Virus record (IMG/VR): IMGVR_UViG_2778261571_000004
Source of the DNA: a virus
Lineage: Duplodnaviria > Heunggongvirae > Uroviricota > Caudoviricetes
Length of the DNA stretch: 64,000 nucleotides
Strand: one strand, 5' to 3'
In this document: in pieces, positions 2,233 to 58,056 of the stretch
Layout: each line of letters starts with the position of its first letter
Numbering within the stretch: position 1 is the first letter of the stretch
Notes under the pieces: model-generated
The model's input: only the letters and a program-made list of their open reading frames with translations
Told to the model about the DNA's origin: nothing
Databases searched by the model: none
Position numbers and translations under genes: made by a program

Positions 2233-2249
2233 ATAACAAATTGTTTTCT
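2233..2249 (-). promoter_or_regulatory. motif-1 palindrome (AACAAATTGTTTT) upstream of 1731..2213, approximate
   Basis: Member of recurrent AAACAA-N-TTGTTT family; TTGACG-17-TAATTA sigma70-like elements lie just upstream in transcript sense. Confidence 0.45.
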
Positions 2250-2299
2250 TGTTGGTGTTAATTATCGTTGTACGAATAAGGCGTCAAAGTAGAAAGTTA

Positions 2300-2360
2300 C
2301 GGTAGCCGGACGGGAACAGGTGGGTTTGTCGGTTGCCTGGAGGTAAGAGGTTGGTGTTTT
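2300..2360. repeat. about 62-bp element shared with 6308..6370 (cggtagcc...aagaggttggtgtttt), approximate
   Basis: Two loci align over about 60 nt with an internal tandem half-repeat. Confidence 0.4.
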
Positions 2361-2418
2361 TAGCCTGCGGTAAACAGGATGGTCATTTAAGGCCACCAGC
2401 GTAAACTGGTGGCGTTTG

Positions 2419-3117
2419 TCATGCTGGAATCATATCTAATTGAAAAGATTCCATTATATATGTTGGTTCATCGATGTAGTCCTTCAGCCTATTGTCAAAT
2501 GACTCAAGCGGATTGTGTGGCGGATGATACCAGTCCGAGTATTCATTTAAAAAATGACCCATTATCAGTTCGATACCCACCTTTACTCCTGCAACTCCGA
2601 ACCATGCATTGTGCGTTAGTTGCTGGGCGTCTGTATCCAGTACGCGAATGCCATCAACAAGCTTTATTAGATTCCTGTGGTTTTCGTGTACTGTAACCTC
2701 TCCGCTGGTTAAGTCTATTTCAGCGAGAAAATATGGTCTTTTGCTTCCGTCGGACTTTTTGAAATGACAGTCATAAGCGACAGCAAACCACGCTTTACTA
2801 AAGTCTTTGTTGGCGTAAGTGGTACACATGCAACTAGGATAATCATCAATGTTAAACCAATCAGGAAGCGGATCATCTTTAGACGAGCCAGCAAAATCAT
2901 CAGCTAGTTTGTAGTTAATGTCTGGGTTGTACTTGCTGACAAAATCATCCACATCCTCTACATCCTCAACACCTTTCCAAACTTTACATTTCTCCGACCA
3001 AAAGAATCTCGCAATATCCGAAATGACTGGGAAACGTTTTTCAATTGAATTTATCAACTCTGCATGTTCTTTAAGAGATTTACGCTTGTTGATAAGCTTC
3101 TGAAGATGCGTACTCAT
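2419..3117 (-). CDS. hypothetical protein
   Basis: 232-aa ORF, GAGGA SD upstream of ATG. Confidence 0.55.
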   Translation of the reverse strand: MSTHLQKLINKRKSLKEHAELINSIEKRFPVISDIARFFWSEKCKVWKGVEDVEDVDDFVSKYNPDINYKLADDFAGSSKDDPLPDWFNIDDYPSCMCTTYANKDFSKAWFAVAYDCHFKKSDGSKRPYFLAEIDLTSGEVTVHENHRNLIKLVDGIRVLDTDAQQLTHNAWFGVAGVKVGIELIMGHFLNEYSDWYHPPHNPLESFDNRLKDYIDEPTYIMESFQLDMIPA

Positions 3118-3400
3118 TTTTAATTCCTCGTTTGTTTTCGATGTGATAATTATCGCTGAATGAAATAGGCTAAAAAGAAGATTTATAAGGCTACTATCTG
3201 GAAGTAAGGCAAAGTGTTGTCATTTAAGGCCACCAATGCTGATGGCCTTAATAATTATCGCCCGATTACGCTAAGGATCTTTTCCTCAACTGATTTGTTG
3301 TTGCGACTAAACTGCCTTGCGTATCTGATGACAGAAGAGGCGTTTCGCTTTCTGACCATCTCGGCTCTTTCCTTCAGGCGTTTCTTGAAATCGCCCATAT

Positions 3401-3775
3401 TTACCACCAGGCGCAAAACGTCAGTCTGTTATTGTGAAAGTCGTGGTTCTTAATCAGGTCTTCCACAAGCTCTTTCAACTCCCCCACATCATGCCAGTAA
3501 CCTTCATCGTACTCCTGACTGCCGAAGAAAAAACCTTCCCGGGTAGGCAAGTACTCTTCGCAATTACTTTCGTTTATGTGCATCAAATGAGCCTTCAGAA
3601 AACAAATGTCATTCATCGTTAATTCTAAAAGCTCACAATTTTCGACTTCACCTACGTTGCGCTCCATCCACCCAACGAGCGCATTGAACTTACGGAAGTA
3701 AGCAACCCGCTTTCTGGATGCCTCATTATTCAGATCGTTTTTTGGCTGCGTCTCGATGTAGATATCAAGTCCCAT
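3401..3775 (-). CDS. hypothetical protein (start moved to Met15 of track ORF 3401..3817)
   Basis: AAGGAAA SD precedes Met15; the track start is a GTG without SD. Confidence 0.45.
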   Translation of the reverse strand: MGLDIYIETQPKNDLNNEASRKRVAYFRKFNALVGWMERNVGEVENCELLELTMNDICFLKAHLMHINESNCEEYLPTREGFFFGSQEYDEGYWHDVGELKELVEDLIKNHDFHNNRLTFCAWW

Positions 3776-3858
3776 GATGGTTTCCTTATTAAGTTGCTTC
3801 AGTGAAATCATTTTCACAAATCAGATAAGGCAGAAAACAAATTGTTATCGGGCATAAT

Positions 3859-3883
3859 AAAATGGCGCGGTTTGCGCGCCATT
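3859..3883 (-). terminator. hairpin terminator (aaatggcgcg..cgcgccattt) after gene 3893..4288, approximate
   Basis: 10-bp GC-rich stem followed by T-rich run in minus sense. Confidence 0.5.
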
Positions 3884-3892
3884 TAAAGAGGA

Positions 3893-4288
3893 TTAAGCGA
3901 ATACGCTTTCAGGGATTAAGGTGTCGGCAGGAATGCCAGAGGTAATGCGCAGACCGTACTGGCCAATCCAGGTGGTGCTGGTGTTCAGGCTGGAGGCGAA
4001 TACGGTGTTAACCATATTCATCATGGTTTCAAACACCTCTTCATCAACCTGGCGGAAGTAGTTCTCGATTTTCAGCAGCAGCGGGTCAGTTGCATCGAGA
4101 ATGGACTGGTATTGAGTCGCGTACTCGCCGTCGGAGTCATCACCTTTACGCACGATCGTACTGGCCTGTACTTCGGCGCCAGTTTCGGTGTTGTACGTAA
4201 CAACGGTGATTTTTGCCACATTCTTACCTTCGGCGGTTTCAGAGGCATAGTAAACATCAACTGTCAGTTTTTCGCGTTTAATGGTCAT
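3893..4288 (-). CDS. hypothetical protein (start at Met23 of track ORF 3893..4354)
   Basis: GGAGAG SD before Met23; motif-2 palindrome and an upstream-gene terminator precede it. Confidence 0.5.
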   Translation of the reverse strand: MTIKREKLTVDVYYASETAEGKNVAKITVVTYNTETGAEVQASTIVRKGDDSDGEYATQYQSILDATDPLLLKIENYFRQVDEEVFETMMNMVNTVFASSLNTSTTWIGQYGLRITSGIPADTLIPESVFA

Positions 4289-4325
4289 TTCACTCTCCGT
4301 AGTGTATTGGTTATTTTTATATTCT

Positions 4326-4344
4326 ATGATCGTAAGTATGTACT
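4326..4344 (-). promoter_or_regulatory. motif-2 palindrome (GTAAGTA-tg-TACTTAC), approximate
   Basis: Inverted repeat between a terminator and the SD of gene 3893..4288. Confidence 0.4.
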
Positions 4345-4414
4345 TACAATACAAAAAAGCCCCGTAAGGATGGCGGGGCTGTCGTACGGTCGACTAATTA
4401 CCACTTGCACATTA

Positions 4415-4726
4415 TCAGGCTATTGCCATCACTGATGCTCTCTGAATCTCTTGCTGGGCCACGCGGTTAACTTCCATCAAAGCCAGTTCGAGCTGATGTT
4501 CCGGCCACATTCTTTGAAATGCCACCCAGCCTTTTCCACGCTGGCGACGAACATTCATTACATAACGAGTAAAGGTGTTTTTATCGAAAGACACCGCTGT
4601 TTCACGGAACAGACGAATAGAGGTTCCATTGGCAACGATGTCCAGCAAAGTTAATTGAGCAACCAGCGCAGGCTTCTCTTTTCTCTTCTGGTCTTTGTCC
4701 AGACCAAGAACCAATGATTTTTTCAT
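4415..4726 (-). CDS. hypothetical protein (start at Met17 of track ORF)
   Basis: GGAG SD before Met17; motif-1 palindrome about 12 nt upstream. Confidence 0.45.
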   Translation of the reverse strand: MKKSLVLGLDKDQKRKEKPALVAQLTLLDIVANGTSIRLFRETAVSFDKNTFTRYVMNVRRQRGKGWVAFQRMWPEHQLELALMEVNRVAQQEIQRASVMAIA

Positions 4727-4736
4727 CACAACTCCG

Positions 4737-4753
4737 TAAACAACTTGTTTTCT
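4737..4753 (-). promoter_or_regulatory. motif-1 palindrome (AAACAACTTGTTTTC), approximate
   Basis: Recurrent motif immediately 5' of SD. Confidence 0.45.
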
Positions 4754-4879
4754 CAATGGCGTAAATAATACCAATAAGAAAACGGCTACAAAGCATAATG
4801 ATCAGGTGCATGAGCGATATGCAGGTTCCTCCCTGCGGCTATAGAGAAATTAAGCCAGCAATGCTGGCTTTGGTTGGGA

Positions 4880-5209
4880 TTACGCGAATACCTCAAGAAA
4901 CTCCTGAACGTCCCAATGCTGGACGAGGTGAAGATAGACCTTAGAAATCACGTCATTTTCGCTATCGCATGTGAAGTAGTACTTCTGGCTGCGGTTGTAT
5001 GTGTCCACACAAAATTCGCTCATATCCATAAAGTCAGCATCTTCACCCATGTCGCAAATCATCAAAGCAGGTGCGTCATCACGAGTCATCAGCTCAAGCA
5101 CCCACCGCGAATTAATCAGAGTGGAAGACCAACCTTCTAACTCATAAAACTGATCAAACTCTTTTTGAGTTAATTTCTTAATTTGGTTGATGTCGATATT
5201 TGCAAACAT
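4880..5209 (-). CDS. hypothetical protein (start at Met8 of track ORF)
   Basis: AAGGAT SD before Met8; motif-1 about 13 nt upstream. Confidence 0.45.
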   Translation of the reverse strand: MFANIDINQIKKLTQKEFDQFYELEGWSSTLINSRWVLELMTRDDAPALMICDMGEDADFMDMSEFCVDTYNRSQKYYFTCDSENDVISKVYLHLVQHWDVQEFLEVFA

Positions 5210-5220
5210 AAAGCAATCCT

Positions 5221-5237
5221 TAAACAACATGTTTTCT
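5221..5237 (-). promoter_or_regulatory. motif-1 palindrome (AAACAACATGTTTTC), approximate
   Basis: Recurrent motif 5' of SD. Confidence 0.45.
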
Positions 5238-5568
5238 TGATGGTGTTATTATCGCAATAACGCAAAGGCGAAAAAGGATTTTATTCCGGTGAATGTGGTT
5301 TTGGCAGTGAGTTTTCAGGTTCAGTACCGAGTACACTTTTTACATTATTCTGATTTAGTGGCCGAAGGTGGCTGGTGGGCAGAATAATCATCTCCCCGAA
5401 AACCTACTGAAATCGATTGTGACCCGTTGGCTGTCTGGCACAATTACGCTGTAACTGGGCATTCAGAGGGAGTCCAACGGTAAGTTAGTCCGCCTACGTG
5501 AGCGCCTCTCTTCTTCCCGCACATTACAGGTGGATAGCCGCAACTCTCCCTCTCGCTATACCGGTACG

Positions 5569-5700
5569 CCGCCGTTCCTGAACCGGCATCGAGCCTTTTC
5601 CCGAAATCCACACAGGCAACTCGACCGTTTCCCTGAAAACCTCCAGCCGTTCCCCGAAGGCAACCCAGCCGTTTCTGTAGCGGGATGCAGCCTTTTCCCT
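5569..5700. repeat. array of 6 direct repeats (consensus about AGCCGTTTCCCGAAA) at 21-23 bp periodicity, approximate
   Basis: Units at about 5569, 5592, 5623, 5645, 5667, 5688; iteron-like helical phasing. Confidence 0.5.
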
Positions 5701-5849
5701 TATGGACCGGAGGCTGACCGTAGGGGTGTTACGGGGGATAAAATCAGGAGTTGAATAAATACGAAAAAGGAGGCGACACCCCTCCTTCCCTCCCCACTTA
5801 TACATACCTGTCTTGTTCGCTATACATGTTGTGTTTTCTTCGTGTTTTA

Positions 5850-6660
5850 TCTGTCTCAACCTCTCTATAGGCGTTAATGCTCACTCCTTCCAGAACGTTC
5901 TATACGGCGACTAATTCTGTTGGTGAATTGGGTGTGTTGTTCTCTCTGTCGGTGTAAATGGTTTCGTTCGTTTTGCGGTGGTTCTTCTATGGGGTGTTCT
6001 CGTCGTTTTGGTGATTGTTCTTCTCCGTCTATGGAGTAATGGCAGGTGGGCGATTGCTTTCGTTATTGTGTTTGAGTTGTTTGTCTGGAGTGTGTGAAAG
6101 GCTTTTGTAGTTATTCGTGTATTGGGTAATGGCGTTTCCCGTGATTGTTATGTTTCGTGTCTTTTGGGGTTGAGAGAAACCTTGCGGTAACAGGCTTCGT
6201 TGGGGTTTCAGTGATTCTGGTGTTTCTTCGCTGTTTGGGGAATGGCGTGTCGTGGGTATCGCGCGTATGAATGTTTTCGGATTGCCTGTGAAAGTTAGGT
6301 TGGTTGTCCGGTAGCCTGGGAAGAAGAGGTGGGTCTTTTCGGTAGCCTGCCATAAAGAGGTTGGTTGTTTTGGGGAATGGCATATGTGTTATTTAGTTGT
6401 TTTGTTATGCCTGAAAATAAGTTGTTTATATGGTTGTGTAACGCAATGGGAGTGATTTTGAGCGTGTGTTTTTGTTGGTAGTGTGTTGGTCGTCTGTGGT
6501 GAAAATTGGACGCTGTGGCGCTGTCTGCTGCGTAGAATTACGGGTATAAGCAGTGATGTGTGAAAACGTCAATTTTTTAGACCAAATCGGGTGAAAGCGT
6601 TGATGTTTCGTTGATCTGTTATTCAGTTGTTTCCTTGATTGTATAAACAACTATAACTTA
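5850..6660. other. G+T-rich, strand-asymmetric non-coding region with short repeats
   Basis: No credible ORF on either strand; plus strand is strongly G/T-biased; contains the 62-bp element at about 6308..6370. Confidence 0.45.
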
Positions 6661-7474: not shown

Positions 7475-7723
7475 TCAGCATTTTACCACCCCGTTCGGAA
7501 ACAACTCATTCGCCGTAGTTGATATAACCTCCCAATTAACGCCGACATCAGCGTTATGGCATTGTCTGATTTTTTGCATCACCTGTACGCATTGTTCATC
7601 AGTGAGATCTGTCCTTACTTCAGCAATATCTTCTTTGTGCCACATAACCATGAGTAAGGGTTCGTCTTCTGGATAGTTTTTCAGTTTCTCGATGATTTCT
7701 TTTGCTGTTCCAAACATCTTCAT
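7475..7723 (-). CDS. hypothetical protein
   Basis: 82-aa ORF, GGAG SD, two motif-1 palindromes upstream. Confidence 0.5.
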   Translation of the reverse strand: MKMFGTAKEIIEKLKNYPEDEPLLMVMWHKEDIAEVRTDLTDEQCVQVMQKIRQCHNADVGVNWEVISTTANELFPNGVVKC

Positions 7724-7727
7724 CTCC

Positions 7728-7744
7728 TAAACAATTTGTTTTCT
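7728..7744 (-). promoter_or_regulatory. motif-1 palindrome (AAACAATTTGTTTTC) abutting the SD, approximate
   Basis: Second copy about 50 nt further upstream (7777..7795), flanking a TTGTTG-17-TATAAG sigma70-like promoter. Confidence 0.45.
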
Positions 7745-7776
7745 TATATGGCTTATTATCTCAATCAACAAAAGGT

Positions 7777-7795
7777 AGAAAACAAATTGTTTTAG
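7777..7795 (-). promoter_or_regulatory. motif-1 palindrome, upstream copy, approximate
   Basis: gaaaacaaattgtttt. Confidence 0.45.
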
Positions 7796-7831
7796 GGCTT
7801 GTGTAAATCAGGAGGGATTGTGTCTATATGA

Positions 7832-19186: not shown

Positions 19187-19663
19187 TCAAGCCATCGTAG
19201 GGATGTCTGTATCCACTTTGAACTCCGGTACACCAACGAACTCTTTAACCTTCATCTGATAGCCGGTTCTGTCAGTTTTGATGACTTCCTGCTTGCCCTC
19301 GATAAATTGCTCACGCCACTCGTCGCGACGGGAAGCTGGCATGATCAGCAAAACGTTAGTCATATCCGTGACCTTCCTCCAGTACTCGGCCCAAATATTC
19401 TGTTTCACCCATTCCAGATCGACTTTATCCAGCCAAGCTCGATTCAAACGTGAGCGTTCTTCATCTGGTCGATGGTTCAGTTGCAGCAGGCGATTAATCA
19501 TGTTGTGGCGTTCGTCGCCATAAACGAAGTCGTGAACCTGATACATGAAGGCGATCTCTTTCTCGCACTCGGCTACGATTTCGTGGATGACGTTCATTTC
19601 CTGACGATAATCGATAGCAGTGTTTGAGTTGGTATCGTCGATGATGGAAAGAGCTGTATTCAT
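19187..19663 (-). CDS. hypothetical protein (158 aa), convergent with hsdR
   Basis: ORF only; weak SD; no motif-1 or motif-2 upstream. Confidence 0.45.
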   Translation of the reverse strand: MNTALSIIDDTNSNTAIDYRQEMNVIHEIVAECEKEIAFMYQVHDFVYGDERHNMINRLLQLNHRPDEERSRLNRAWLDKVDLEWVKQNIWAEYWRKVTDMTNVLLIMPASRRDEWREQFIEGKQEVIKTDRTGYQMKVKEFVGVPEFKVDTDIPTMA

Positions 19664-19766
19664 AATTGCACCATTAAGAAAAGATTTGTTTAATAGTGCA
19701 ATTATTTCAAAAATGAAAAGGTGCTAAATAGAAATTAACAGGCAATCCTTTAAATAAAGGTATTTG

Positions 19767-20719: not shown

Positions 20720-21289
20720 TCAATTAGAGCTTTGAAAGACTTTGTGTGGTTGTGTTGCGAGGTTATGTCGATGGCTTAACTCACGCATCATGTCTTCAAG
20801 GCGACTCTTTGTGTCGTCGAGTTGGTCGGCCATTGCTCCCAAAAGCTGACGAACGGCCATCGGATCATCGCTGTTTAGTGATGGCATTTTATAACCCGCC
20901 TGAGAAGACATAAGATTGAACGCAGACATCAACATCGTTAGAGAGGATTTAAGCCCAGCAATTTCACGATCTTTGCTGGCAATAATCGTCTCACTCTTGT
21001 TAGTGTCATCAGTTCGTTGAGTCTCGCTCACCATATCCAAAGTCGCCTGCAACTTATCAGCGCGCTCTTTTTCAGCAAGATAATGAACACCGAAATGATG
21101 TGCTAAAGCTACAACCTGAGTTGGCTCTTCAAAGGTGGACTCAAAATTAAGTGCTGTAACCACTCTCTCAAATATGGAAACGTCTTCTATTCCTCGAAGA
21201 ATGGCTAACATTTTGACCAGTTCATTAGCATCCATTTCTTCGAATAAGGCGTTTTGTTCATCAGCTATCGCTTTGCATTTCTTACACAT
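20720..21289 (-). CDS. hypothetical protein (189 aa)
   Basis: AGGAAAAACAC-ATG initiation context shared by backbone genes; motif-1 upstream. Confidence 0.5.
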   Translation of the reverse strand: MCKKCKAIADEQNALFEEMDANELVKMLAILRGIEDVSIFERVVTALNFESTFEEPTQVVALAHHFGVHYLAEKERADKLQATLDMVSETQRTDDTNKSETIIASKDREIAGLKSSLTMLMSAFNLMSSQAGYKMPSLNSDDPMAVRQLLGAMADQLDDTKSRLEDMMRELSHRHNLATQPHKVFQSSN

Positions 21290-21304: not shown

Positions 21305-21325
21305 CTTAAACAAGTTGTTTTCTTA
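21305..21325 (-). promoter_or_regulatory. motif-1 palindrome (TTAAACAAGTTGTTTTCTTA), approximate
   Basis: Recurrent motif 5' of SD. Confidence 0.45.
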
Positions 21326-21586: not shown

Positions 21587-22012
21587 TTAGAGATAAGCAT
21601 CCAGTGACAACTGAAGCGCCTGGGCGATCTTTTTCAGTGCCTGCTCTTCTTGTTCACCAATGCCGTCCTGGTCGGCAATATCAAGGCACAGACACAGAAC
21701 ATCGACCGCCTCTGGAGTGCCCGCAATATCAGCCAGCTCACGCATAGCCTGCGCATTCGCAGAACGAGGGGACGCTTCGTAACGAGCACGGATATTGGCG
21801 CTCATTTGGGCAATTTCACCAGCAAACGGAGAAAACGCAGGCAGAGCTGCAATTGTCTTCTCAAGAATGGCAATTTCTTTTGCGTCACATGTGCCGTCGG
21901 CATAGGAGATCATGTACGCGCCCCACACGGTGGCCTCAACCGCATCACGGTTCTCCATTTTTTTGACTTCGATAACAGCTTTACGAGTTTTCTTTTTGAA
22001 GAAACCTAACAT
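21587..22012 (-). CDS. TerB-like domain protein (tentative)
   Basis: Segment YADGTCDAKEIAILEKTIAAL resembles TerB-type acidic motif; weak, from memory. Confidence 0.35.
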   Translation of the reverse strand: MLGFFKKKTRKAVIEVKKMENRDAVEATVWGAYMISYADGTCDAKEIAILEKTIAALPAFSPFAGEIAQMSANIRARYEASPRSANAQAMRELADIAGTPEAVDVLCLCLDIADQDGIGEQEEQALKKIAQALQLSLDAYL

Positions 22013-22033: not shown

Positions 22034-22052
22034 TCAAAACAAGTTGTTTTAT
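22034..22052 (-). promoter_or_regulatory. motif-1 palindrome (AAAACAAGTTGTTTT), approximate
   Basis: Recurrent motif. Confidence 0.45.
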
Positions 22053-31083: not shown

Positions 31084-32226
31084 TTACAGGTCTGCAAACT
31101 GGCTTAGAGAAGCCTTATCCACGGTAGAATCGATCTGACCTACCAGATATGTGCTTTGCTCTGCCTCTTGTGGTGCAATTTGCAGTGTGTCGGTTAACAA
31201 CCACTTGTTCATCCAGACCAGCGGATCTGTGGTAACTTCTGGAAATAAAGCCTTCAGGCCAAGACGATTCATAGCCAGATTGGTGCGGTATTTTACATAG
31301 GTCTTCAGAATATCCGCGTTTAAACCAATCATCGAACCGTCTTTGAAGAGATAGTCTGCCCAGTTCATTTCTTGTTCGGCGACTGATTTCATGGTGTCGT
31401 AAATGACGTTTTCTTCATCAGCAGCAATCTCTTTCCACAATAAACCTTCGCGACCGGTACGCATGAAGCGGATCATGCGTTCAGTTCCTTCGCAATGCAG
31501 AGCTTCATCACGGGCAATAAAGCGCATAATTTTGGTGTTACCCTCAAGCAACTTCCGTTCGCCAAAGGCAAACGTACATGCAAAACTTACATAGAAACGG
31601 ATCGCCTCAAGCGCATTAATGGACACCAACGTGCGGAAAAGCTGACGGTGCAAAGGGTATGGCTCCCAGCCATATTCATTTACGTACAGACGTTCAAACT
31701 CTTTCTCACCTAACGACTGGCGCTCGCAGGTCATCCTATAAAGCCTGTCATATTCAGCAGAGATACTGATCGCTCGGTTGATGATTTCTTCATCCGTAAC
31801 AATACCGTCAAAAACAATACTCGGATCGTCCACCATGCCACGAATAATGTGGGTGTAGCTGCGGCTATGGATAGTCTCAGAGAAAGACCATGTTTCAACC
31901 CACGTTTCCAGTTCAGGAATAGAGATAAGCGGCAGCAGCGTTGCATTTGGGCTACGTCCCTGAACTGAATCGAGTAACGTTTGATAACGGAGATTGCTCA
32001 GAAAAATGTGACGTTCGTGGTCCCGCAGCTTCGTGTTGAAGTCGATACGATCGCTCGAAATATCAACTTCTTCCGGCCGCCAGAAGAAAGACAATTGACG
32101 TTCAATCAACTTTTCAAAATCACGGTATTTTTGCTGATCGTAACGTGCCACGTTGACAGATTGTCCGAGGAACATAGGCTCTTTGGTTGCATCATTAGCA
32201 CCCAAACGGAACGTTGAATATGACAT
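31084..32226 (-). CDS. nrdB: ribonucleotide reductase class Ia small subunit
   Basis: Di-iron/tyrosyl-radical family features; adjacent to nrdA. Confidence 0.9.
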
Positions 32227-32254: not shown

Positions 32255-32277
32255 TTTAAACAAGTTGTTATCTTATG
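32255..32277 (-). promoter_or_regulatory. motif-1 palindrome (TTTAAACAAGTTGTTATCTTA) upstream of nrdB, approximate
   Basis: Recurrent motif; preceded in transcript sense by nrdA terminator hairpin. Confidence 0.45.
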
Positions 32278-32332: not shown

Positions 32333-34648
32333 TCAGATTTTGCAGGCTCCGTCGCACTCATCTTCTGGCTCGACGGCTACAGCTTGCGTCAGTGGATTCT
32401 GCGGTTCGTCGTCATCACGCTTTCCTGCCCCATCTCTGGTGTTGTGGTAGTAAAGCGTTTTAACTCCCATCTTGTAGGCGAGAAGCAAATCTGACAGTAG
32501 CGTCATCATTGGGACTTTATCGCCTTCAAAGCGAGAAGGGTCATAGTTGGTATTGGCTGAAATAGCCTGGTCAAAGAACTTCTGGATGATCGCCACCTTT
32601 GTCAGATAGCCGCGGTTGTCCGGCATATCCCACAGGTATTCATACTGTTCCTTCAGTTTTTCAAACTCAGGCACGACCATCTTAACGATGCCGTCCTTAG
32701 AAGATTTCACCGACACCGGGCCACGAGGCGGTTCGATGCCGTTGGTGGAATTAGTGATCTGGCTGGAAGTCTCGCATGGCATTTGTGCCGTCAGTGTGGA
32801 GTTGCGAAGGCCGTATTTTGCAATACGTTCACGCAGTTCTTCCCACGGCATCTTTAACTCAAAGTTGGTTTCGCCACTTTCGTCTAATGAAGAACGGTAA
32901 TGGTCGATCGGCAACTGACCAATTGCGTACTTGGTCTGCTCAAACCAGTCACACTCACCTTTTGCTTCAGCAAGTCGGCAGCTGGCATCAAGAAGGTAAT
33001 ACTGGATAGCTTCGAACGTTTCATGCACCAGTTTATTGCCAGCGGTATCAGAATAACGAACGCCATTCTTTGCCAGGTAATAAGCAAAGTTGGTTACACC
33101 AATTCCCAAGCTACGACGAGCTTTGGCAGGCACTTCGGCTGCCTCCATCGGATAGTCTTGATAATCCAGTAACGAATCCAGTGCAGCAACGGCATAGAAC
33201 GCCACCTCTTTAAGAGACTCCAGTGAACGGATGGCTCCGAGGTTAAAAGCGGATAAAGTGCATAGCGCGATCTCACCGTTCGGGTCGTCGGTAAATGCCA
33301 GTGGACGAGTGGGTAGAGTGATCTCCATGCACAGGTTTGACTGGCGGACAGGTGCAAGAGCAGGAATGAAAGCGCCATGCTCATTAATATGATCGACGTT
33401 CGCAATATAAATTCGGCCCGTGGACGCTCGTTCCTGCATCAGAGATGAGAACAGCTCAATGGCAGGTACTGACTTCTTGCGAATTGAATCATCGGCTTCG
33501 TATTTATGGTACAGCTTTTCAAACAGATCCTGGTCTGTGAAGAAGGCTTCGTACATATCAGGCACATCATGCGGGCTGAACAGAGTGATGTTCTCGCTTC
33601 TGACGAGTCGACGGTACATTAGACGGTTACTCATGACGCCGTAATCAAGATGGCGAACGCGGTTTTCATCAATACCACGGTTATTTTTCACCACCAGCAG
33701 ACTTTCAACTTCAAGATGCCAGATCGGGTAAAACGCTGTTGCTGCGCCACCACGAACACCACCTTGCGAGCAAGATTTAACAGCAGTCTGGAAATGCTTC
33801 AGGAATGGAATAACTCCGGTATGGGTGGCTTCACCATTGCGGATCTCACTGCCCAGCGCACGGATACGGCCAAAACCAATACCAATTCCAGCACGACGTG
33901 AAACGTAGTCGATAATTGCGGCTGAAGCTGCACTAATCCCTTTCAGACTATCGCCAGACTCAATCAGCACACAACTGGAGAACTGACGGGTTGGAGTACG
34001 GACGCCAGCCATGATTGGTGTGGGCAGAGACAGTTTGAACGTACTTGTAACGTCATAGAAACCTTTGACCATCTCCATACGTGTTTTGCCCGCGCAGTCG
34101 TCTTCCCAATTCTGGAACAGACACATGCCCACCAGCATATAGATATGTTGCGGGCCTTCGTGAATCTCACCAGTAACACGGTTTTGAACGAGGTATTTGC
34201 TTTGCAACTGCACCGTAGCTGCATAGCCAAAAAGATCGTCACGTTTCGGCTTAATGTAATTGCCGAGTTCTTCGATCTCTTCAAACGAATAATGTGTCAG
34301 CAAATCCTTGTCATAAACGCCCTTGTTAACGTTCTTGACAATGTGTTGGTAGAAGTTCGGATAGTCGTAACGACCGAAGGCATCTTTGCGGATTTTAAAA
34401 ATGTTCAGGCGGGCAGCCACCTGTGAGTAATTTGGTGCTTCTGGTGAGATCAAATCAGCGGCAGATTTAACCAAAGCCTCATGCAACTGGCTGGTGGTAA
34501 TCCCATCAAAAATGCTGGCCGCAGCTCCCATTGCTACAGCGGATGCGCTTACACCACGAATGCCTTCTACGCCATACATTACGACGCGGTTGTATTTTTC
34601 TTCGGATAACGGCTCTGTTTGGCCGTTACGTTTTACGATGCTTATCAT
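32333..34648 (-). CDS. nrdA: ribonucleotide reductase class Ia large subunit
   Basis: 771 aa; N-terminal ATP-cone-like segment, catalytic Cys/Glu blocks (NLCMEI), C-terminal redox Cys pair. Confidence 0.9.
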   Translation of the reverse strand: MISIVKRNGQTEPLSEEKYNRVVMYGVEGIRGVSASAVAMGAAASIFDGITTSQLHEALVKSAADLISPEAPNYSQVAARLNIFKIRKDAFGRYDYPNFYQHIVKNVNKGVYDKDLLTHYSFEEIEELGNYIKPKRDDLFGYAATVQLQSKYLVQNRVTGEIHEGPQHIYMLVGMCLFQNWEDDCAGKTRMEMVKGFYDVTSTFKLSLPTPIMAGVRTPTRQFSSCVLIESGDSLKGISAASAAIIDYVSRRAGIGIGFGRIRALGSEIRNGEATHTGVIPFLKHFQTAVKSCSQGGVRGGAATAFYPIWHLEVESLLVVKNNRGIDENRVRHLDYGVMSNRLMYRRLVRSENITLFSPHDVPDMYEAFFTDQDLFEKLYHKYEADDSIRKKSVPAIELFSSLMQERASTGRIYIANVDHINEHGAFIPALAPVRQSNLCMEITLPTRPLAFTDDPNGEIALCTLSAFNLGAIRSLESLKEVAFYAVAALDSLLDYQDYPMEAAEVPAKARRSLGIGVTNFAYYLAKNGVRYSDTAGNKLVHETFEAIQYYLLDASCRLAEAKGECDWFEQTKYAIGQLPIDHYRSSLDESGETNFELKMPWEELRERIAKYGLRNSTLTAQMPCETSSQITNSTNGIEPPRGPVSVKSSKDGIVKMVVPEFEKLKEQYEYLWDMPDNRGYLTKVAIIQKFFDQAISANTNYDPSRFEGDKVPMMTLLSDLLLAYKMGVKTLYYHNTRDGAGKRDDDEPQNPLTQAVAVEPEDECDGACKI

Positions 34649-43253: not shown

Positions 43254-43679
43254 TCAATCTTCTTGTTTAGGGAAAAACTGTTCAATAACTCTGTCAACGG
43301 CTGTGTCTATATGGAGTAGATGCCACACAACCATATCTTTGCTTCCCATGCCTTGTGTGAATATCACGTCATACTTACGCCATGCGCAGTGGAACCAATA
43401 TGCTGAGTCATCAATTGGTAAATCCTCTCCCGCCTCTTTGAAGTATTTCAGCAGCATTGCCTGCTCTGCCGTTGGCGTTGGACCTATTTCCTGAGCGTAC
43501 ATACGGATGAATCGCTGCCAGTCTGTCTCGTCGGGGGTTGGATCTGGTGGGGTCATTTCTGCGATAGCGTTTCGTAGCTGATGCGCCCAATCAGGTTCAG
43601 GAAAGCCTTTTGCTACTTCATCATCAATAACATCCAGAGCCACGTTTGCGGCATCGTAGAGTTTCTTAATAGCTGCCAT
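43254..43679 (-). CDS. hypothetical protein (141 aa)
   Basis: Motif-1 palindrome upstream. Confidence 0.5.
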   Translation of the reverse strand: MAAIKKLYDAANVALDVIDDEVAKGFPEPDWAHQLRNAIAEMTPPDPTPDETDWQRFIRMYAQEIGPTPTAEQAMLLKYFKEAGEDLPIDDSAYWFHCAWRKYDVIFTQGMGSKDMVVWHLLHIDTAVDRVIEQFFPKQED

Positions 43680-43690: not shown

Positions 43691-43718
43691 CTTTTAAACA
43701 AATTGTTTTCTTAATAAG
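43691..43718 (-). promoter_or_regulatory. motif-1 palindrome (TTTTAAACAAATTGTTTTCTTAA), approximate
   Basis: Recurrent motif. Confidence 0.45.
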
Positions 43719-50052: not shown

Positions 50053-50381
50053 TGATGCCCGCCAATTGGCGGGCATCTGTTCTCTGTAAAGGTGTCTGGC
50101 ATCGTCTGGTTCGTTAACGTTTACTAAACCAATGGTGACAAAAATTAGTTATCTTTGAAAAATAAAGGTTGCATGAAAAGAAGGGGTATGCGTTAATAGC
50201 ATCGTTGGTTTGCAAGACAGACCTTATGTAAGCAGTTTTAGTAAAGCAGTCTCAGTTCAGTGTTATCTTCTGATTTCCCTTCTTCGTGAGTCTCCTCCTT
50301 AAGTGCCTAAGTAAGTCCCAATCTATACAGATCAAATTCTCGCCGCACTATGTGGCTCACAAAATTAAGAAGGTAATATCT

Positions 50382-50597
50382 ATGTCTAATAAAATGACTG
50401 GTTTAGTAAAATGGTTTAACTCTGATAAAGGCTTTGGCTTTATTTCTCCTGCTGATGGCAGTAAAGATGTTTTTGTACATTTTTCGGCAATTCAGAGTAA
50501 TAATTTCCGCACTTTGGAAGAAGGCCAGCAGGTCGAATTCTCTATCGAGAATGGTGCTAAAGGCCCAGCAGCAGCAAATGTCGTTGCTCTAAGCTGA
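50382..50597 (+). CDS. cold-shock protein, CspA family
   Basis: [20 protein letters not shown]...[11 protein letters not shown]1/RNP2 motifs; long 5' leader. Confidence 0.85.
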
Positions 50598-50873
50598 TTC
50601 AACGCTGATGATCCTCATTTCTACAATAACGAAGACGGTGTAAGCCTGAGTGGATAGATTTGTAGGATTGTACAAGTTGAATAAATTAGCATGGTAAGGC
50701 CATGCTAATTAAATCGACACAACGGCCAGTTTATTCCATAAAAGTGAATTGCCCATTGTGGCGAAATGCGGGGTTGCCGCATGAATAGTCAAAGGCAGAA
50801 GCTAACTGCCGGCATGGCAAAACAAAGTGCGTAAGAGGAGTGACTTCCTCAACAAGCGCCATAATTCTTTATA

Positions 50874-53900: not shown

Positions 53901-54407
53901 CGCTGTAATCAGTGTGCTTATGATTTTTGCAAAATCGTTGCGTTGGAACACGCTACCGATGTCGGAAGTAAGCAGGATGATGTTGCCTTTGGCATATGTA
54001 GAAACCAACTGTTCGAGCGAGAGACGCGGTACAAAGTAGAACTGTTCTCGTGTGTTGGCCACCGTCATTAGTTCGCAGATGTCGCGATATCCTTGCTCAT
54101 TTTTAATTAGAGCGGTAAATGAGTAGTTACGTCCCCGCTCTAATGATTCCATACATCTCATAGATTCTTTAGCAAGTTTAGCCCGGTGCTCGTATGTGGG
54201 ATCATCAACAATGTTTAGTTTCACACCACAAATAACCGCCATGTCGTCACCAGCGGCACGTTGTAGTGGAATAACGCTCGCAATATTCATGCTATCTGCT
54301 GAAATTACAGCGGTGTAGCCAGCTTCTCTGGCAATCTTCACCGCGTTTTCTGCTTTTAGAGCCGACTCCCCAAGTGAGAAGTCAGTTCGAACCATCAGTG
54401 CCTTCAT
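50901..54407 (-). CDS. dnaE: DNA polymerase III alpha subunit homolog (DnaE-type, PHP domain)
   Basis: 1168 aa; Pol III alpha signature GRGSSAGSLVAWCIGIT and PHP N-terminus. Confidence 0.9.
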   Translation of the reverse strand: MKALMVRTDFSLGESALKAENAVKIAREAGYTAVISADSMNIASVIPLQRAAGDDMAVICGVKLNIVDDPTYEHRAKLAKESMRCMESLERGRNYSFTALIKNEQGYRDICELMTVANTREQFYFVPRLSLEQLVSTYAKGNIILLTSDIGSVFQRNDFAKIISTLITAGGKDNFYSVVYPHPTPFYDQINVRAMKVASALKIEPVAFYPAYYESIDDADIKDIAHMVTNNIKIDQPHRLRIPHQRDNAINGRRHLLEALKAFSVRMDVPVTAAMASTTQDSIIDACTWRWHELPPALPKMADDEPATLMKLAVAGLRKRLTTKEFGYTPPASENRVYVERLKYEMNTLTRLGFCGYFLMVRDLMNHSRETGIPVGPGRGSSAGSLVAWCIGITNVDPIRHGLLFERFINPERLDLPDADLDFSQARRHEVIEYLNERYGEDYVAGIPNFTYLGAASALRDTARIYGVESADMAVSKELKNVEDDSLPLEELREQLASLDKYATKYPDAFNAACKLQSLMRGFGRHAAGMIVAGVPLTERTPVERRGDARCIAFDKRYCEAMGLIKLDVLGLATLDLLDSAKRYIKENTGEDINLDAISLEDRKVLDGFAAGYTQGVFQLESGPMRKLLKDLGGGIEPMSFKTVVATTALFRPGPIQSGMLDDYVSVAKGFMAPHSIHPRLEEVTRETNGVLLYQEQIMQSSRVLAGFSMAEADALRSAIGKKNMDKMKAIGSDFVERAQAGWVTLSLKNGGTVEVHKHAKLDCSDGKRRSYSEAISDGIDYVEIVSEQEGLSKEKAQEIWDAFEKFGGYAFNKSHSVAYSLISYQSMWLKTHYPAEFFAAALTILGEDKHQGLVKDALTYGIRVLPPDVNVSSNRIEIRTLEDGSQALYAPFSAVKGCSENGCQAIMRAREKVGGKFESVAQFDEAVEKRACNSRVRESLHKVGAFASIEPGSLPATDPERLRDQAELMGNLIIDAVKASRPFEMNPKRSAEINVLMTRMAAEMGLGEELIRPTIGIKPKIMIILDNANGNDARTGYFMENGYDDFKAKLLTVGDLRMGDLYVTGVCKKVKDKEKDYTKDEIGQFTDFIREEINLVRPTYILTCGSRSTALFNNKSKPSDLIGRKEYFPELDATVFYGFNPNILYFRPEEGERLEAILADIAETINK

Positions 54408-54586
54408 GTGTTTTTACCTTTCTGGTTTTTTTTGATTTTGTCATTGGGGAAGCCTACGAACTTCCCATGCATCGAAATCGCAACTTCTTTTGCTGATTGG
54501 TGACAATCGGGCTTGTCTGGACACACCAGACAAGCCTTACCAGTTTCAGAAGCAGCGATAAGAGAGCCGAAACATCCTTTACGCAC
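54404..54586 (-). CDS. possible small zinc-ribbon protein (60 aa), doubtful
   Basis: C-x13-C-x2-C-x5-C; GTG start without SD; Cys codons lie in a perfect 11-bp inverted repeat. Confidence 0.2.
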   Translation of the reverse strand: MRKGCFGSLIAASETGKACLVCPDKPDCHQSAKEVAISMHGKFVGFPNDKIKKNQKGKNT

Positions 54587-54588
54587 GA

Positions 54589-55824
54589 TTAACCAAATAT
54601 TTTTTGAACAACTTCACGAGCCGCTTGTGCAGAAGCTGAAGGGAGTTTGTTAATGAAAGAACGCTCAATACCTGTCACAAAGTCGCCTCGCATCATTCCA
54701 ATCTTGGCCGACAACAAAAGTTCACGAGGGCCAATTGGCTGACTAATAAGGTGTTCTTCGTATCCATCGCGAACGATACCGGCAAACTTAACCATCTTTT
54801 CAGCGTATTCATCCACGATGCCTGCATTTGTCAACATGTTGATCTCTGCGTCTTTGCTCATGTATTTCACATTCGAAACGATGCCAAAACGCGAAAAGTT
54901 CGCGGCGTTCTGGATGTTTGTACCCTGGTACAAGCCGGTTTCATCACCAGATCCGTTCGTGTTGCCAGTGCCAATGAAAGCAAACCGTTCATGCGGAGTA
55001 ATGCGACGCCATTCTGGAGTTGCCTCTTTGATGACCAACGCTTCACCTTCCAGCACTGGCTGATACACGCCAAGAATCTGTGGAAACGCAAAGTCGTATT
55101 CATCCGCGAGGTAAACCCAGCCATGCTTCATTGCGAGCGCAAGCAAGCCAGGCTCGAAATACGTAGAGCCATCACGCGCCAGAATTTGCCCCGTAACATG
55201 TGCCTCTTCCATTGATGCTGTATGTTGGGCACGGATCAACGGACGATTGAGCAAAGCACATAGTTGTGTAGGCAATGACGATTTGCCTGTTCCTGCATGA
55301 CCCCACAAATAGCCAGGTATGCCAAGTTCAAGCATCATGAAAATGTCTTTGATCAGTTCGAAGTCGCCATATACGTAGCCCTTCTTCACTTCTGGAACGA
55401 ACTCTGGAAACGGCGTATTGACGTTGACGCTAACCATGAGCGGCGTCCCACGTTTTGTTCCGAGTTCTTTCACCGTTACATTTAGCAGTTCGTGAGCTGC
55501 GACCAGATCTGTCTTGTACTCAACTGTGCCTGTGTAGCCTGGGCTACTGGTCACGCCAGATGATTTGGCCATTTCGCTTTTTTGCTCGGCACGTTTAGCT
55601 TGAATTGCATCAAGTGCCTTTTTCGATAGCGTTGGCTCATCTGGAAACTGTGTTGTGTACATTTTCAGTACGGTGTCAGGATCGGCATCTTTTACTGACT
55701 CAGGAATGCCCTCGCAATTACCATTGGCTACATGGGACTTAAAATAGTGAAATGATTTTCCGCACCACTTGCAAACAAGGTAATCAGAAGGATTTTTTTC
55801 ATTTTGCAGTGCAGTAGTCGTCAT
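54589..55824 (-). CDS. AAA+ ATPase, CobS/MoxR-like
   Basis: Walker A GHAGTGKS, Walker B VYLADE; paired with downstream vWA protein. Confidence 0.65.
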   Translation of the reverse strand: MTTTALQNEKNPSDYLVCKWCGKSFHYFKSHVANGNCEGIPESVKDADPDTVLKMYTTQFPDEPTLSKKALDAIQAKRAEQKSEMAKSSGVTSSPGYTGTVEYKTDLVAAHELLNVTVKELGTKRGTPLMVSVNVNTPFPEFVPEVKKGYVYGDFELIKDIFMMLELGIPGYLWGHAGTGKSSLPTQLCALLNRPLIRAQHTASMEEAHVTGQILARDGSTYFEPGLLALAMKHGWVYLADEYDFAFPQILGVYQPVLEGEALVIKEATPEWRRITPHERFAFIGTGNTNGSGDETGLYQGTNIQNAANFSRFGIVSNVKYMSKDAEINMLTNAGIVDEYAEKMVKFAGIVRDGYEEHLISQPIGPRELLLSAKIGMMRGDFVTGIERSFINKLPSASAQAAREVVQKIFG

Positions 55825-55882
55825 GCGTTTTTCCTTTGTTCTCTAATGAGCGTTCAACTTCTTATATAAATATATCATCATC

Positions 55883-55903
55883 TATCGTAAGTGGTTACTT
55901 ATC
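55883..55903 (-). promoter_or_regulatory. motif-2 palindrome (GTAAGT-ggt-TACTTATC) upstream of CobS-like gene, approximate
   Basis: Inverted repeat in intergenic region. Confidence 0.35.
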
Positions 55904-55919
55904 ATTAAGGCTGTTTTGT

Positions 55920-58028
55920 TCACTTTAAAATGATACGAGATAGTTCAGTAACTACAGATGAACCAAGACTATCAACGCTCGTTACCAGGGCATGATTTGA
56001 GTAAAATCTCTCCGGTGCGTCAGTCATGATGCCAATTGCCATCAAATCAATATCAGTCTGCGTTTCAATTTGCTTCGCAACTGAACGCAAATGAGCGTCA
56101 AAACCTCTCCCAACAGCCCACGGCGCGCCATCACTCAGAACAAGCATGATCTTCCTGTCCTCCATGCGACCGGAAAATAACGATGCAAGGCTGGCTATGC
56201 TTTCACCATCCACGTTATTAAGAAGTGGGAATGTGTACCCTACGCACCCCATACGTGAGCGAACTTCGCGAGAATTTACCTTTTCATTCCAATTTTTGAT
56301 GATAGGTAGCATTAAAGATTCAAAGCGAGAGAACTCATACTTGACAGCCTTAAGTTCTCCTGCCGCCATATGACTACCAAATGTAGTGAAGCCGGTGATA
56401 ATGTTGGGAACATTTATTCGATCAAGGGCATCGGCGATGGTATATGCACTTGCAAGAGCCAGTTTAATCGTTATACCACTCATTGAACCTGATAAATCAA
56501 TCACTTGTTGAACACAGGCGTTAACGGCTTTAGATTCTTCTTTTTTACGAAACACGCGAGCATCATTCATTGCTAATCTGTAGATACTAGAACCATGAAT
56601 GCGCCCCCGACGCTGGCCCGGTATAAACTGAACTCTGTTTCTGCTTGCTATTGCTCGCTCCAGGTCTTTTGCCAGCGTCGACGAAACACCTGACGAAAGA
56701 TGCTTTTCAATATATTTGTCGAAGAGCTGGTTGCCTTCAGAAACGATGCGATAGCGGCTGATTGGACATCCTCCTAAATCAATATCGGAGAATGTTTTAA
56801 TAAGCCGTTTGATATGGGCTTCTGCCTGATCAATCGAGCCGATGAAGTCGTATGAGCGATTGTATGGCCTGTATTCGCTTTTCGAGCTTTCTGTTAACTC
56901 GCTTTTAATCGTTTCGGATAGAGCATCTTCTGTCATGCCTCCGACTTCATCTTCTATGCTATCCAGCTCCTCTAAAGCCTCTTCCAGACTCATTTTTGAC
57001 GGAGTTGGAATATCTGAAGAGCCGTCTTCTGTCGTTTTTCTTTTTTCGTGGTCAGCGGTTAATGATTCTGACGCCGCGTTATCAGAAGCATCAGAATCTG
57101 ATACCTCTTTATCATTTTCTGTATCATCGAATATTGTTTCTGATGATTCAGAATTATCTGAATCATCGCTGTCGTTATTATCATGTTTGTGCTTACTGTG
57201 TGATTCTGATTTGATAGATTTGTGATTATCTAACGCTGAGGGTGTCTCATGATCTTCGTTGTCTTCATTGTTTTCTCCAGAGGCATCCGTCTGGTCAGCG
57301 TCTGAAGGATCGGAAGTTTTTCCCGGAGCTGACTCCTTACCTTTGCTTTCACTTTCAGTGTCTTTGAGGATCTTAGCTATGGTCGCAGCCACCTTTACAC
57401 AATCCTCGGTGCAAGACATGTTACGCACGGCCACATCGATACCATGTTCTTTTAATAATGAAATTGGTTTCTCAATGACAGGCCAATATTCATCCATGAA
57501 ATCTACGAACGGTGCTTGGCCATCCCAGGCTCTTACAACCGGACAGAGAAAGAAGTTTAGAAAAAGCGCGCGCTGATCTTTGCCACAATAAGCAATAGCC
57601 TCTGAAGCCTTTGGTTTAAAGACTTTTTCGATTATAAGGCGCTGAGTTGCCATCAGATTACGTCTTGTTCCGTTAAAGATCTGACCCATTTTTCGCTCGA
57701 TGAACACGTCTTCTAAGGCATTCCATAGCGACCAGGAAGGAACGCGTCCTTTTTCTCTCATTTTGTTGGACACACGAATATCGGTAAACAAAATGTGAGC
57801 AACCTCATGATCGAGAAATCCGCGCACAGCATTCATCAATGCCGGTGTTGCGTTATCCGGGATTGATGGGATGTTTACGAGAATTGGCTCTCCATCATCG
57901 TTATAGCGTACATAAGCGTCGTCCCCTCGTTCTGCAACAGGGATGTTTTTACCTGAAAGGAGAGCGACTACTCGTTTTACACTGTCACGGAAGTCCTGAA
58001 CCTCTTTGATGGAACGTTTTTTAGACAT
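55920..58028 (-). CDS. von Willebrand factor A domain protein, CobT-like, with acidic low-complexity central region
   Basis: MIDAS-like DLSGSMSG near C-terminal third; D/E/S-rich stretch. Confidence 0.6.
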   Translation of the reverse strand: MSKKRSIKEVQDFRDSVKRVVALLSGKNIPVAERGDDAYVRYNDDGEPILVNIPSIPDNATPALMNAVRGFLDHEVAHILFTDIRVSNKMREKGRVPSWSLWNALEDVFIERKMGQIFNGTRRNLMATQRLIIEKVFKPKASEAIAYCGKDQRALFLNFFLCPVVRAWDGQAPFVDFMDEYWPVIEKPISLLKEHGIDVAVRNMSCTEDCVKVAATIAKILKDTESESKGKESAPGKTSDPSDADQTDASGENNEDNEDHETPSALDNHKSIKSESHSKHKHDNNDSDDSDNSESSETIFDDTENDKEVSDSDASDNAASESLTADHEKRKTTEDGSSDIPTPSKMSLEEALEELDSIEDEVGGMTEDALSETIKSELTESSKSEYRPYNRSYDFIGSIDQAEAHIKRLIKTFSDIDLGGCPISRYRIVSEGNQLFDKYIEKHLSSGVSSTLAKDLERAIASRNRVQFIPGQRRGRIHGSSIYRLAMNDARVFRKKEESKAVNACVQQVIDLSGSMSGITIKLALASAYTIADALDRINVPNIITGFTTFGSHMAAGELKAVKYEFSRFESLMLPIIKNWNEKVNSREVRSRMGCVGYTFPLLNNVDGESIASLASLFSGRMEDRKIMLVLSDGAPWAVGRGFDAHLRSVAKQIETQTDIDLMAIGIMTDAPERFYSNHALVTSVDSLGSSVVTELSRIILK

Positions 58029-58039
58029 GGCTAATCCTT

Positions 58040-58056
58040 TGTTATGAAAACAAATT
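58040..58056 (-). promoter_or_regulatory. degenerate motif-1 (AAAACAAATTATTT), approximate
   Basis: 5' of CobT-like start. Confidence 0.3.

Follow-up and report, generated by a model that had tools for sequence, protein, structure and literature searches.

A recurrent palindrome in SSU5-type phage-plasmids is most likely a switch site that keeps virus genes silent in the plasmid state

The 64,000-nucleotide stretch of viral DNA analysed here (IMG/VR record IMGVR_UViG_2778261571_000004; hereafter the window) is, by its sequence, from an Escherichia coli phage-plasmid of the SSU5/pHCM2/pLF82(Cyrano) type. A 13-base palindrome, AAACAA-N-TTGTTT (motif 1), recurs in front of its backbone genes and is most likely a switch site that keeps the virus genes silent in the plasmid state. 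In our preferred, though far from assured, reading, the copies form a dispersed set of repressor operators that act at the DNA level. The palindrome itself is a real cis-element, far from random in its occurrence and deeply conserved, and the module that it forms with a promoter-like sequence is best read as defining the lytic regulon of SSU5-type phage-plasmids.

Over 6 kb, a piece of the window shares 98-99% identity with E. coli plasmids of about 110 kb, including pGD31-F25 (NZ_CP031294.1) and pLF82, and 685 PLSDB records match it. As a phage, pLF82 is recorded under the name Escherichia phage Cyrano (OV696614), an SSU5-like siphovirus with a plasmid lifestyle (PMC9928086).

Results

We searched the whole window for AAACAANTTGTTT with at most one mismatch and set the chance level with 100 dinucleotide-preserving shuffles. 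Twelve matches were found, against 0.47 +/- 0.67 in the shuffles (largest 3), and all 12 are intergenic (Table 1). A sequence-only reading of this DNA had described a recurrent palindrome before backbone genes and named a frequency no higher than in shuffled AT-rich sequence as one outcome that would refute it; the count bears the reading out, the positions given there agree with ours within 0-7 nt, and the copy at 6415 is additional. A longer 20-mer, TTAAACAAGTTGTTTTCTTA, occurs exactly at 21306-21325 and in five further copies with at most three mismatches, against none expected. The same scan finds no copy in the cargo region, between 7792 and 21308, as the earlier reading had also claimed. 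The full relative pGD31-F25 (110 kb) carries about 20 sites, none in cargo and none inside the structural operon. Its copies beyond the window lie before a ParA-like operon and before a DnaB-like helicase gene, and a tandem pair precedes the small terminase gene at the head of the 28-kb structural operon.

The motif is unchanged through the supercluster, in SSU5 (20 copies), Klebsiella pKPHS1, an Enterobacter plasmid and Yersinia pestis pMT1, and also in the most divergent relatives found. Across 79 related IMG/VR loci totalling 1.41 Mb there are 589 copies, about 60 times the chance level. When 42 unique promoters of a single gene and its orthologues are aligned, with downstream proteins 67-100% identical, the blocks CGATAAT, AGAAAACAA and TTGTT prove invariant or nearly so, and the spacer, central base and leader vary. 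Full-text literature searches with the motif string returned no match, and full-text searches on the regulation of SSU5/pHCM2 returned nothing on promoters or operators; as far as the searchable literature reaches, the motif has not been described before.

The palindrome belongs to a larger module. In its usual form this reads, on the coding (minus) strand, a -10 hexamer, 13 or 14 nt of spacer (aaCaCCAaC), AAGAAAACAA-N-TTGTTTA, a Shine-Dalgarno (SD) sequence and the ATG. Of 41 unique copies from five genomes, 30 have a -10-like hexamer whose end lies 13-14 nt ahead of the core; across the 41, the hexamer is GATAAT in 18, and TG stands at -15/-14, the extended -10, in 23. The distance from core to ATG varies from 1 to 35 nt in the same set. 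With a transcription start about 7 nt beyond the hexamer, the centre of the dyad would lie near +14. In a second register, seen in 50 unique contexts from related loci, an inverted copy lies exactly 19 nt upstream of GATAAT or GAAAAT, which would place its centre at about -38. Both registers would fall within the footprint of RNA polymerase. The upstream copies are kept at orthologous positions while their flanks diverge; for the copy at 3835 this holds in pKPHS1 and L143.

The promoter part of the module looks like an ordinary sigma70 promoter, often with an extended -10 (TGnGATAAT), and the palindrome stands downstream or upstream of it, which speaks against the earlier suggestion of a dedicated phage promoter. 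The two arms of the palindrome are unequally conserved: the 80 promoter-anchored copies of the downstream type show 3 mismatches in the arm nearer the promoter, which has the AGA flank, and 32 in the distal arm, and among the -38 copies, too, the arm facing the promoter core is the better kept (14 against 28 mismatches). A better notation for the functional unit is therefore AGAAAACAA-N-TTGTTT, in which a strong half is joined to a weaker one. Three other readings of the module were rejected. The TTTGCGTTA block lies about 4 nt from the -10, against a requirement of about 12 for a T4 MotA box; the upstream arm TTGTTT would be separated from the -10 by a 19-nt spacer, too long for a -35 element; and a centre at -38 does not fit an activator site at -41.5.

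The layout also refines what the sequence-only reading had said of the window copies, namely that all share one orientation, lie 6-30 nt upstream of minus-strand SD sequences and at two loci follow sigma70-like hexamers. The claim of one orientation holds only in part: the core is palindromic, and judged by the asymmetric flank AGAAAACAA, the copies at 3835 and 7780 read on the plus strand, and those at 6415 and 58048 also score better there. The position before the SD sequence holds at 10 of the 12 sites (core-to-ATG distance 5-31 nt) and not at 3835 and 7780, which lie 19 nt upstream of a -10. In place of paired hexamers at two loci, we find a -10-like hexamer 12-14 nt upstream of the core at six of the 12 sites.

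Expression data are available for the lysogenic state, since the published LF82 transcriptomes list every Cyrano gene, with a lysogen median of 9.8 (PMC9928086, S1 Table). Lytic genes directly behind the motif read 5.7-25 in the Cyrano lysogen: terS 7.1, the cobT-like gene 7.8, CYRAN_58 5.7, CYRAN_85/87 7 and CYRAN_101-111 7-25 (PMC9928086). Reads differ slightly across two of the sites, from nrdA (7.6) to nrdB (12.9), both near the median, and from CYRAN_31 (6.2) to the helicase gene (21) (PMC9928086). Plasmid, lysogeny and cargo genes that lack the motif read 90-590, among them repA (133), the gene for a helix-turn-helix (HTH) protein (96) and toxin-antitoxin genes, and the motif-free hypothetical gene CYRAN_43 reads about 7000 (PMC9928086). 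These RNA levels fit repression of the motif-bearing lytic genes.

The palindrome has little to offer as an RNA structure. Its hairpin is worth only -0.7 kcal/mol, six of seven predicted leaders fold no better than their shuffles (z between -1.8 and +1.2; for the best leader, 14 of 200 shuffles are as good), and Rfam finds nothing at the motif sites. On these results an RNA hairpin or terminator is rejected as the explanation of the motif.

Table 1. Copies of motif 1 in the window, with a related half-site promoter in the last row. Promoter elements and dyad positions are predicted.
Core (strand)	Arrangement	Sequence and promoter elements	Gene or context
2234..2246 (-)	downstream-type, dyad at about +14	minus-strand AAGAAAACAATTTGTTA; -10 GATAAT at 2261-2266, ending 14 nt upstream	precedes 160-aa gene 1731..2213 (phrog_1641); orthologous footprint from 42 unique sequences
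3835..3847 (+)	upstream-type, inverted, dyad at about -38; upstream copy only, no downstream copy	exactly 19 nt upstream of TGtGAAAAT (-10 at 3810-3815)	directly follows a terminator-like hairpin; predicted promoter leads to the gene ending at 3401, in-frame ATG near 3775
4738..4750 (-)	downstream-type	perfect core; extended -10 TGgTATTAT, hexamer 4765-4770	ATG 4726, gene 4415..4726 (phrog_5125)
5222..5234 (-)	downstream-type	AAACATGTTGTTT; extended -10 TGcGATAAT, hexamer 5248-5253	ATG 5209, gene 4880..5209 (phrog_7645)
6415..6427 (.)	no -10 at either standard distance	one-mismatch copy, minus-strand AAACAACTTATTT	position conserved in SSU5, pKPHS1 and L143
7729..7741 (-)	downstream-type	perfect core; extended -10 TGaGATAAT, hexamer 7755-7760; SD AGGAG abuts the core	gene 7475..7723
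7780..7792 (+)	upstream-type, promoter shared with 7729	19 nt upstream of GATAAT 7755-7760	
21308..21320 (-)	downstream-type	perfect core, top match to the 25-nt matrix; -10-like CACAAT 21334-21339	gene 20720..21289 (phrog_5508)
22037..22049 (.)	nearly symmetric	ATAAAACAACTTGTTTTGA; TTGACC about 40 nt upstream, no clear -10	24 nt upstream of ATG of TciA/TerB-like gene 21587..22012
32258..32270 (-)	between nrdA and nrdB	TAACAACTTGTTT, preceded by TTTAAAcacataaga	31 nt upstream of nrdB ATG (gene 31084..32226)
43696..43708 (-)	right after an intrinsic terminator (ggcgtcc..ggacgccTTTTTT)	perfect core	16 nt upstream of ATG of gene 43254..43679 (phrog_1451)
58048..58060 (.)	one-mismatch copy	minus-strand AAATAATTTGTTT; TGcTACATT ends 12 nt upstream	19 nt before ATG of CobT-like gene 55920..58028
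3121..3154 (-)	same-family promoter with only the well-conserved half-site	GATAATtatcacatcgAAAACAAAcgagg	upstream of gene 2419..3117

Two of the window copies, at 7729 and 7780, bracket a single promoter core, with 51 bp from centre to centre. At the position equivalent to 58048, SSU5 and pMT1 have a perfect core. The copy at 6415 is followed by a C/A-rich, G/T-poor stretch of about 650-700 nt (5764-6500, minus strand) with no convincing open reading frame (ORF), which ends at a strong intrinsic terminator (5790-5764); no gene is annotated there in pGD31-F25, and SSU5, pKPHS1 and L143 all keep its head, cacgctca.aa.cgctcc..ttgcgtta. Possible identities of the stretch are a long non-coding RNA and an origin-like region. 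A second repeat family, of CCAGGCTACCGAA.AACCC.CC-like units on the minus strand, occurs within this stretch (about 6300-6360) and upstream of the promoter of the 160-aa gene (about 2290-2350), and is conserved in the orthologous alignment.

The minus strand carries nearly all backbone genes of the window. These include T4-like genes of DNA metabolism (NrdAB, ThyX, DHFR, DnaE, a gp32-like SSB, UvsY and SbcCD), the plasmid RepA and many small ORFs of no assigned function; P1-like genes (Cra, TciA/TciB and an S24 peptidase) are also present in the window. The cargo block, at about 7.9-19.1 kb, holds metG, apbC, an S24 peptidase and a type I restriction-modification system. At its boundary with the backbone (19661-19710, plus strand), a 10-bp inverted repeat, ATAATTGCAC ... 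GTGCAATTAT, surrounds AAGAAAAGATTTGTTTAA, a degenerate look-alike of motif 1 on the opposite strand that is preceded by CATAAT. Four clustered tRNA genes lie at 61100-61797 on the minus strand (Ser-tga, Thr-tgt, Tyr-gta and Asn-gtt), three of which reach the Rfam gathering score. The Rfam cspA thermoregulator RF01766 is matched over its full length (188 bits) at 50204-50622 on the plus strand, opposite to the backbone genes, and points to a gene for a cold-shock protein with its 5′ untranslated region.

The only recognisable HTH in the window is the protein encoded at 58591-58977, a weak HTH_19 match, which the sequence-only reading had put forward as the binder. We reject this candidate, as the complete SSU5 genome, with its 20 motif copies, encodes no homologue. 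The control region of the gene (58340-58590) also lacks motif 1; it has instead a perfect GGTAAGCACTTACC palindrome at 58546-58559 and extra GGTAAG and CTTACC half-sites at 58368 and 58434, and this palindrome is probably a separate operator system of the HTH regulator.

Four other candidates, conserved among the relatives, are encoded outside the window. The first is a 174-aa protein with a full-length match to Pfam PF03614, repressor of phase-1 flagellin (E = 1.5e-84; phrog_1444). Its gene (pGD31-F25 69618-70142; L001:4619-5143:+) is found about 0.6 kb beyond the left edge of the window and runs against the lytic genes. This FljA-family protein is present in every relative examined, including pMT1, and in IMG/VR the family occurs only in SSU5-like contigs. 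Its AlphaFold2 model (predicted local distance difference test, pLDDT, 77) consists of two tandem helix-plus-five-strand units, and all top Foldseek matches in the PDB are Hfq, with probability 1.00 and template-modelling (TM) scores to the target of 0.7-0.87, which suggests a tandem Hfq/Sm-like fold. The gene is expressed in the lysogen, at log2 values of about 7-8 in most conditions (PMC9928086).

The second candidate is a small basic protein of 117-130 aa encoded after, and in one operon with, a ParA-like ATPase (pGD31-F25 33250-34277; L003:3250-4277:-; SSU5_033/034; CYRAN_28/29). The ATPase matches the MipZ, CbiA and ParA families of Pfam, and the pair is probably the real partition system. 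The small protein keeps an invariant RPQGRPTRGK..I.SRTMS.EDE segment and an equally invariant FTRSDVIRAAI helix, putatively the part that reads DNA, while its remainder falls to 48% identity. A ribbon-helix-helix fold finds no support in Pfam, in a PDB profile search, in hhalign against ParG or in Foldseek with a monomer model. The two ParB_N proteins of the element are at background in the lysogen, at 5.0 and 9.5 against the median of 9.8 (PMC9928086).

The third, CYRAN_117, a 92-aa protein encoded after the UvsW helicase (pGD31-F25 68844-69122; L001:3845-4123:+), ranks with the phage genes of highest lysogen expression, at 114 against the median of 9.8 (PMC9928086). By eye its N-terminus resembles a ribbon-helix-helix (TTYCQVALSDKANDKL...SKAEVINTILEQL), a conjecture for which Pfam, a PDB sequence search, hhalign and Foldseek gave no support, and no family was detected for it; it is a candidate lysogeny regulator. 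The fourth, an 88-aa protein encoded before terS, shows weak similarity to the LexA-type winged helix (E = 0.07) and is at background level in the lysogen (PMC9928086). The motif stays unchanged even in relatives whose FljA-like protein is only 52-53% identical or whose ParA partner is 48% identical; since it never changes, co-variation cannot separate the candidate binders.

Discussion

In the mechanism that we favour, for which we infer the transcription starts, the binding at the DNA level, the repressor role and the identity of the binder, each module would consist of a host sigma70 promoter with a AGAAAACAA-N-TTGTTT dyad at about +14, an inverted copy at about -38, or both. During the plasmid (lysogenic) state the phage would supply a DNA-binding protein that sits on these sites and keeps RNA polymerase from binding or escaping. 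Some 15-20 lytic-cycle units would thus be kept off, covering nucleotide and DNA metabolism, many small ORFs and the terminase/late operon, and the plasmid and cargo genes, which lack the site, would escape this control. Three observations favour a site in DNA: its distance is fixed to the promoter and not to the ribosome-binding site, the -38 copies are kept at orthologous positions yet cannot be part of that promoter's transcript, and RNA folding does not account for the palindrome. The earlier proposal of an operator set, or promoter class, that defines co-regulated backbone genes and is absent from the cargo is in its general form the best supported, by the two registers, the conserved footprint and the near-silence of the genes behind it in the lysogen, with the mechanism remaining inferential.

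Several observations weigh against operators of this kind. The parA operon bears the motif and nevertheless reads 50-89 in the lysogen, five to nine times background (PMC9928086). Low lysogen RNA would equally be expected from translational repression followed by mRNA decay. A strict two-hexamer promoter scan calls none of the predicted promoters, which it misses because the -35 is weak. The strong asymmetry of the arms is not predicted by a simple symmetric dimer, and no conserved protein is tied to the site.

An operator in RNA, as a rival reading, we consider unlikely. A FljA-family protein would bind single-stranded, A-rich AAGAAAACAA and UUGUUUA halves in the 5′ leader, next to the SD sequence, and so block translation and speed mRNA decay, as Salmonella FljA is reported to do on fliC mRNA. 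The PF03614 protein is encoded by the same replicon, kept in all relatives and expressed in the lysogen, its predicted fold is Hfq-like, and FljA-type proteins have been described as preventing translation of fliC mRNA (PMC2652032; bioRxiv 10.1101/2025.10.27.684867). Most motif copies fall in a predicted leader and abut the SD sequence, an arm asymmetry of 3 against 32 mismatches would be natural for an RNA site, and CAAGTTGT adjoins the SD sequence in the fliC leader of Salmonella and Citrobacter. That common 8-mer was, however, picked post hoc and is missing from the E. coli K-12 fliC leader, and with the full matrix the fliC leaders score as ordinary sequence (empirical P = 0.13 for Salmonella and 0.20 for E. 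coli). The conserved -38 copies lie outside the regulated transcript, the spacing is constant to the -10 and not to the SD sequence or ATG, and the dyad symmetry is left unexplained because the RNA hairpin is negligible; the FljA-like protein could also be a lysogenic-conversion gene that silences the host flagellin. As to the binder, it is doubtful that the tandem Hfq-like protein of the FljA family reads the site, as a repressor of the flagellin-switch type adopted to silence about 20 lytic units, or that the ParA partner does so instead. The former would act on the nascent leader, on DNA, or on both; the latter, a small ParA-associated protein, would couple partition to prophage silencing through the same dispersed sites.

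It is decidedly less likely that the palindrome has no dedicated binder and is simply part of a promoter/leader cassette, an initial transcribed sequence with an A/U-rich translation enhancer, spread by duplication and recombination before many small ORFs. Such a cassette would account for the repetition of the whole module of about 70 bp (GCC-TTTT block, -10, CCA and AAGAAAACAA), for the many copies that head single small ORFs bounded by terminator-like hairpins, and for the far better conservation of the promoter-proximal arm. It does not account for dyads that stand detached from the cassette, after terminators, inverted at -38 or in tandem before the small terminase gene, or for the nrdA/nrdB copy behind a different -10; both arms are kept around a free centre in lineages whose marker proteins are only 52-57% identical, and a repressor is needed to explain why promoters of good appearance stay nearly silent in the lysogen. 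A partition-linked origin, in which the dyads are centromere or operator sites of the small basic protein after the ParA-like ATPase, we regard as quite improbable. Autoregulation of its operon would be the primary role of that protein and the silencing of phage promoters a secondary one, with omega (pSM19035) and N15 as precedents. In every lineage checked a downstream-type copy precedes the parA-like operon although the surroundings diverge, the invariant segments of the small protein parallel the invariance of the motif, and in the lysogen the parA operon is expressed (50-89 against the median of 9.8) with the ParB-like genes at background. Centromere-binding proteins of type Ib combine a flexible N-terminus with a ribbon-helix-helix domain (PMC5016525), and the N15 centromere consists of four separate inverted-repeat sites (PMC7205306). 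Here, however, the ribbon-helix-helix fold was read from the sequence by eye and neither searches nor Foldseek found it, a single dyad and no array lies upstream of parA, pMT1 keeps the motif though its parA operon is lost, and in the Cyrano record the small protein is annotated as a RelE/ParE-like toxin. Least probable of all, and very improbable in our view, is a site for a conserved enterobacterial transcription factor, used to sense the state of the host. The identical sequence in elements of Escherichia, Salmonella, Klebsiella, Enterobacter, Cronobacter and Yersinia would suit a host factor. The literature string searches, however, returned no match, and we know of no E. coli regulator with this consensus; KdgR, PhoP, NrdR, PurR and IHF do not fit.

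A dispersed set of DNA-level operators has parallels in known systems. The C1 operators of P1 are also found in a plasmid prophage, as more than 12 copies of a short site over about 100 kb; they lie at or overlap the promoters of lytic operons, some promoters have two copies, and the site is asymmetric. The P1 operator sequence, ATTGCTCTAATAAATTT, is unrelated, the present motif has strict +14/-38 registers and clear dyad symmetry, and no C1 homologue was recognised in the element. KorB, a global repressor of the ParB family in IncP plasmids, binds the operator OB, TTTAGCSGCTAAA, which is likewise a 13-bp palindrome of 6-1-6 layout with a free centre, with about a dozen operators to a replicon; some of these sit immediately before the -35 (about -39) and others elsewhere, and the regulon covers the backbone and excludes cargo. 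Here, by contrast, most sites lie downstream of the predicted start, the sequence is unrelated, and the two ParB_N proteins stay at background in the lysogen.

The remaining likenesses are more partial. As with FljA and the fliC leader, a FljA-family protein accompanies the motif in every element that bears it, and most copies lie in a predicted leader beside the SD sequence; there is, however, no significant similarity to fliC leaders, some copies lie outside leaders, and the targets number about 20 and not one. As with omega of pSM19035 and ParG of TP228, the gene for a small ParA is followed by that of a small protein whose own promoter carries the site; this protein could double as a global regulator, and half-sites spaced by about 7 bp are in keeping with heptad-type recognition. 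Unlike their arrays of 7-10 repeats, the sites here are single dyads across the genome, and the ribbon-helix-helix fold is conjectural. The promoter-early stem-loop (PeSL) cassettes of T4-type phages are promoter-containing repeats that likewise stand before many small ORFs in a plastic genome region, and this element carries T4-like UvsW, UvsY and gp32-like genes. In contrast to PeSL, the repeat here is a protein-type dyad with no stable RNA stem, and it also heads core operons (nrdB, cobT-like, helicase and terminase).

Phage-plasmids of the SSU5/pHCM2/pMT1 type turn up very commonly among clinical Escherichia, Klebsiella, Salmonella, Enterobacter and Yersinia, and are reported to carry resistance genes. 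Our literature searches returned no account of how such elements silence some 60 kb of lytic genes when they live as plasmids. An invariant site that marks essentially every lytic unit would provide both a bait for the master regulator and a defined regulon. In new genomes the presence of the site may predict gene class, with site-bearing genes belonging to the lytic programme and site-free genes to the plasmid or cargo. The FljA/Hfq-like protein and the partner of ParA, both conserved and both expressed in the lysogen, may also be linked to this silencing.

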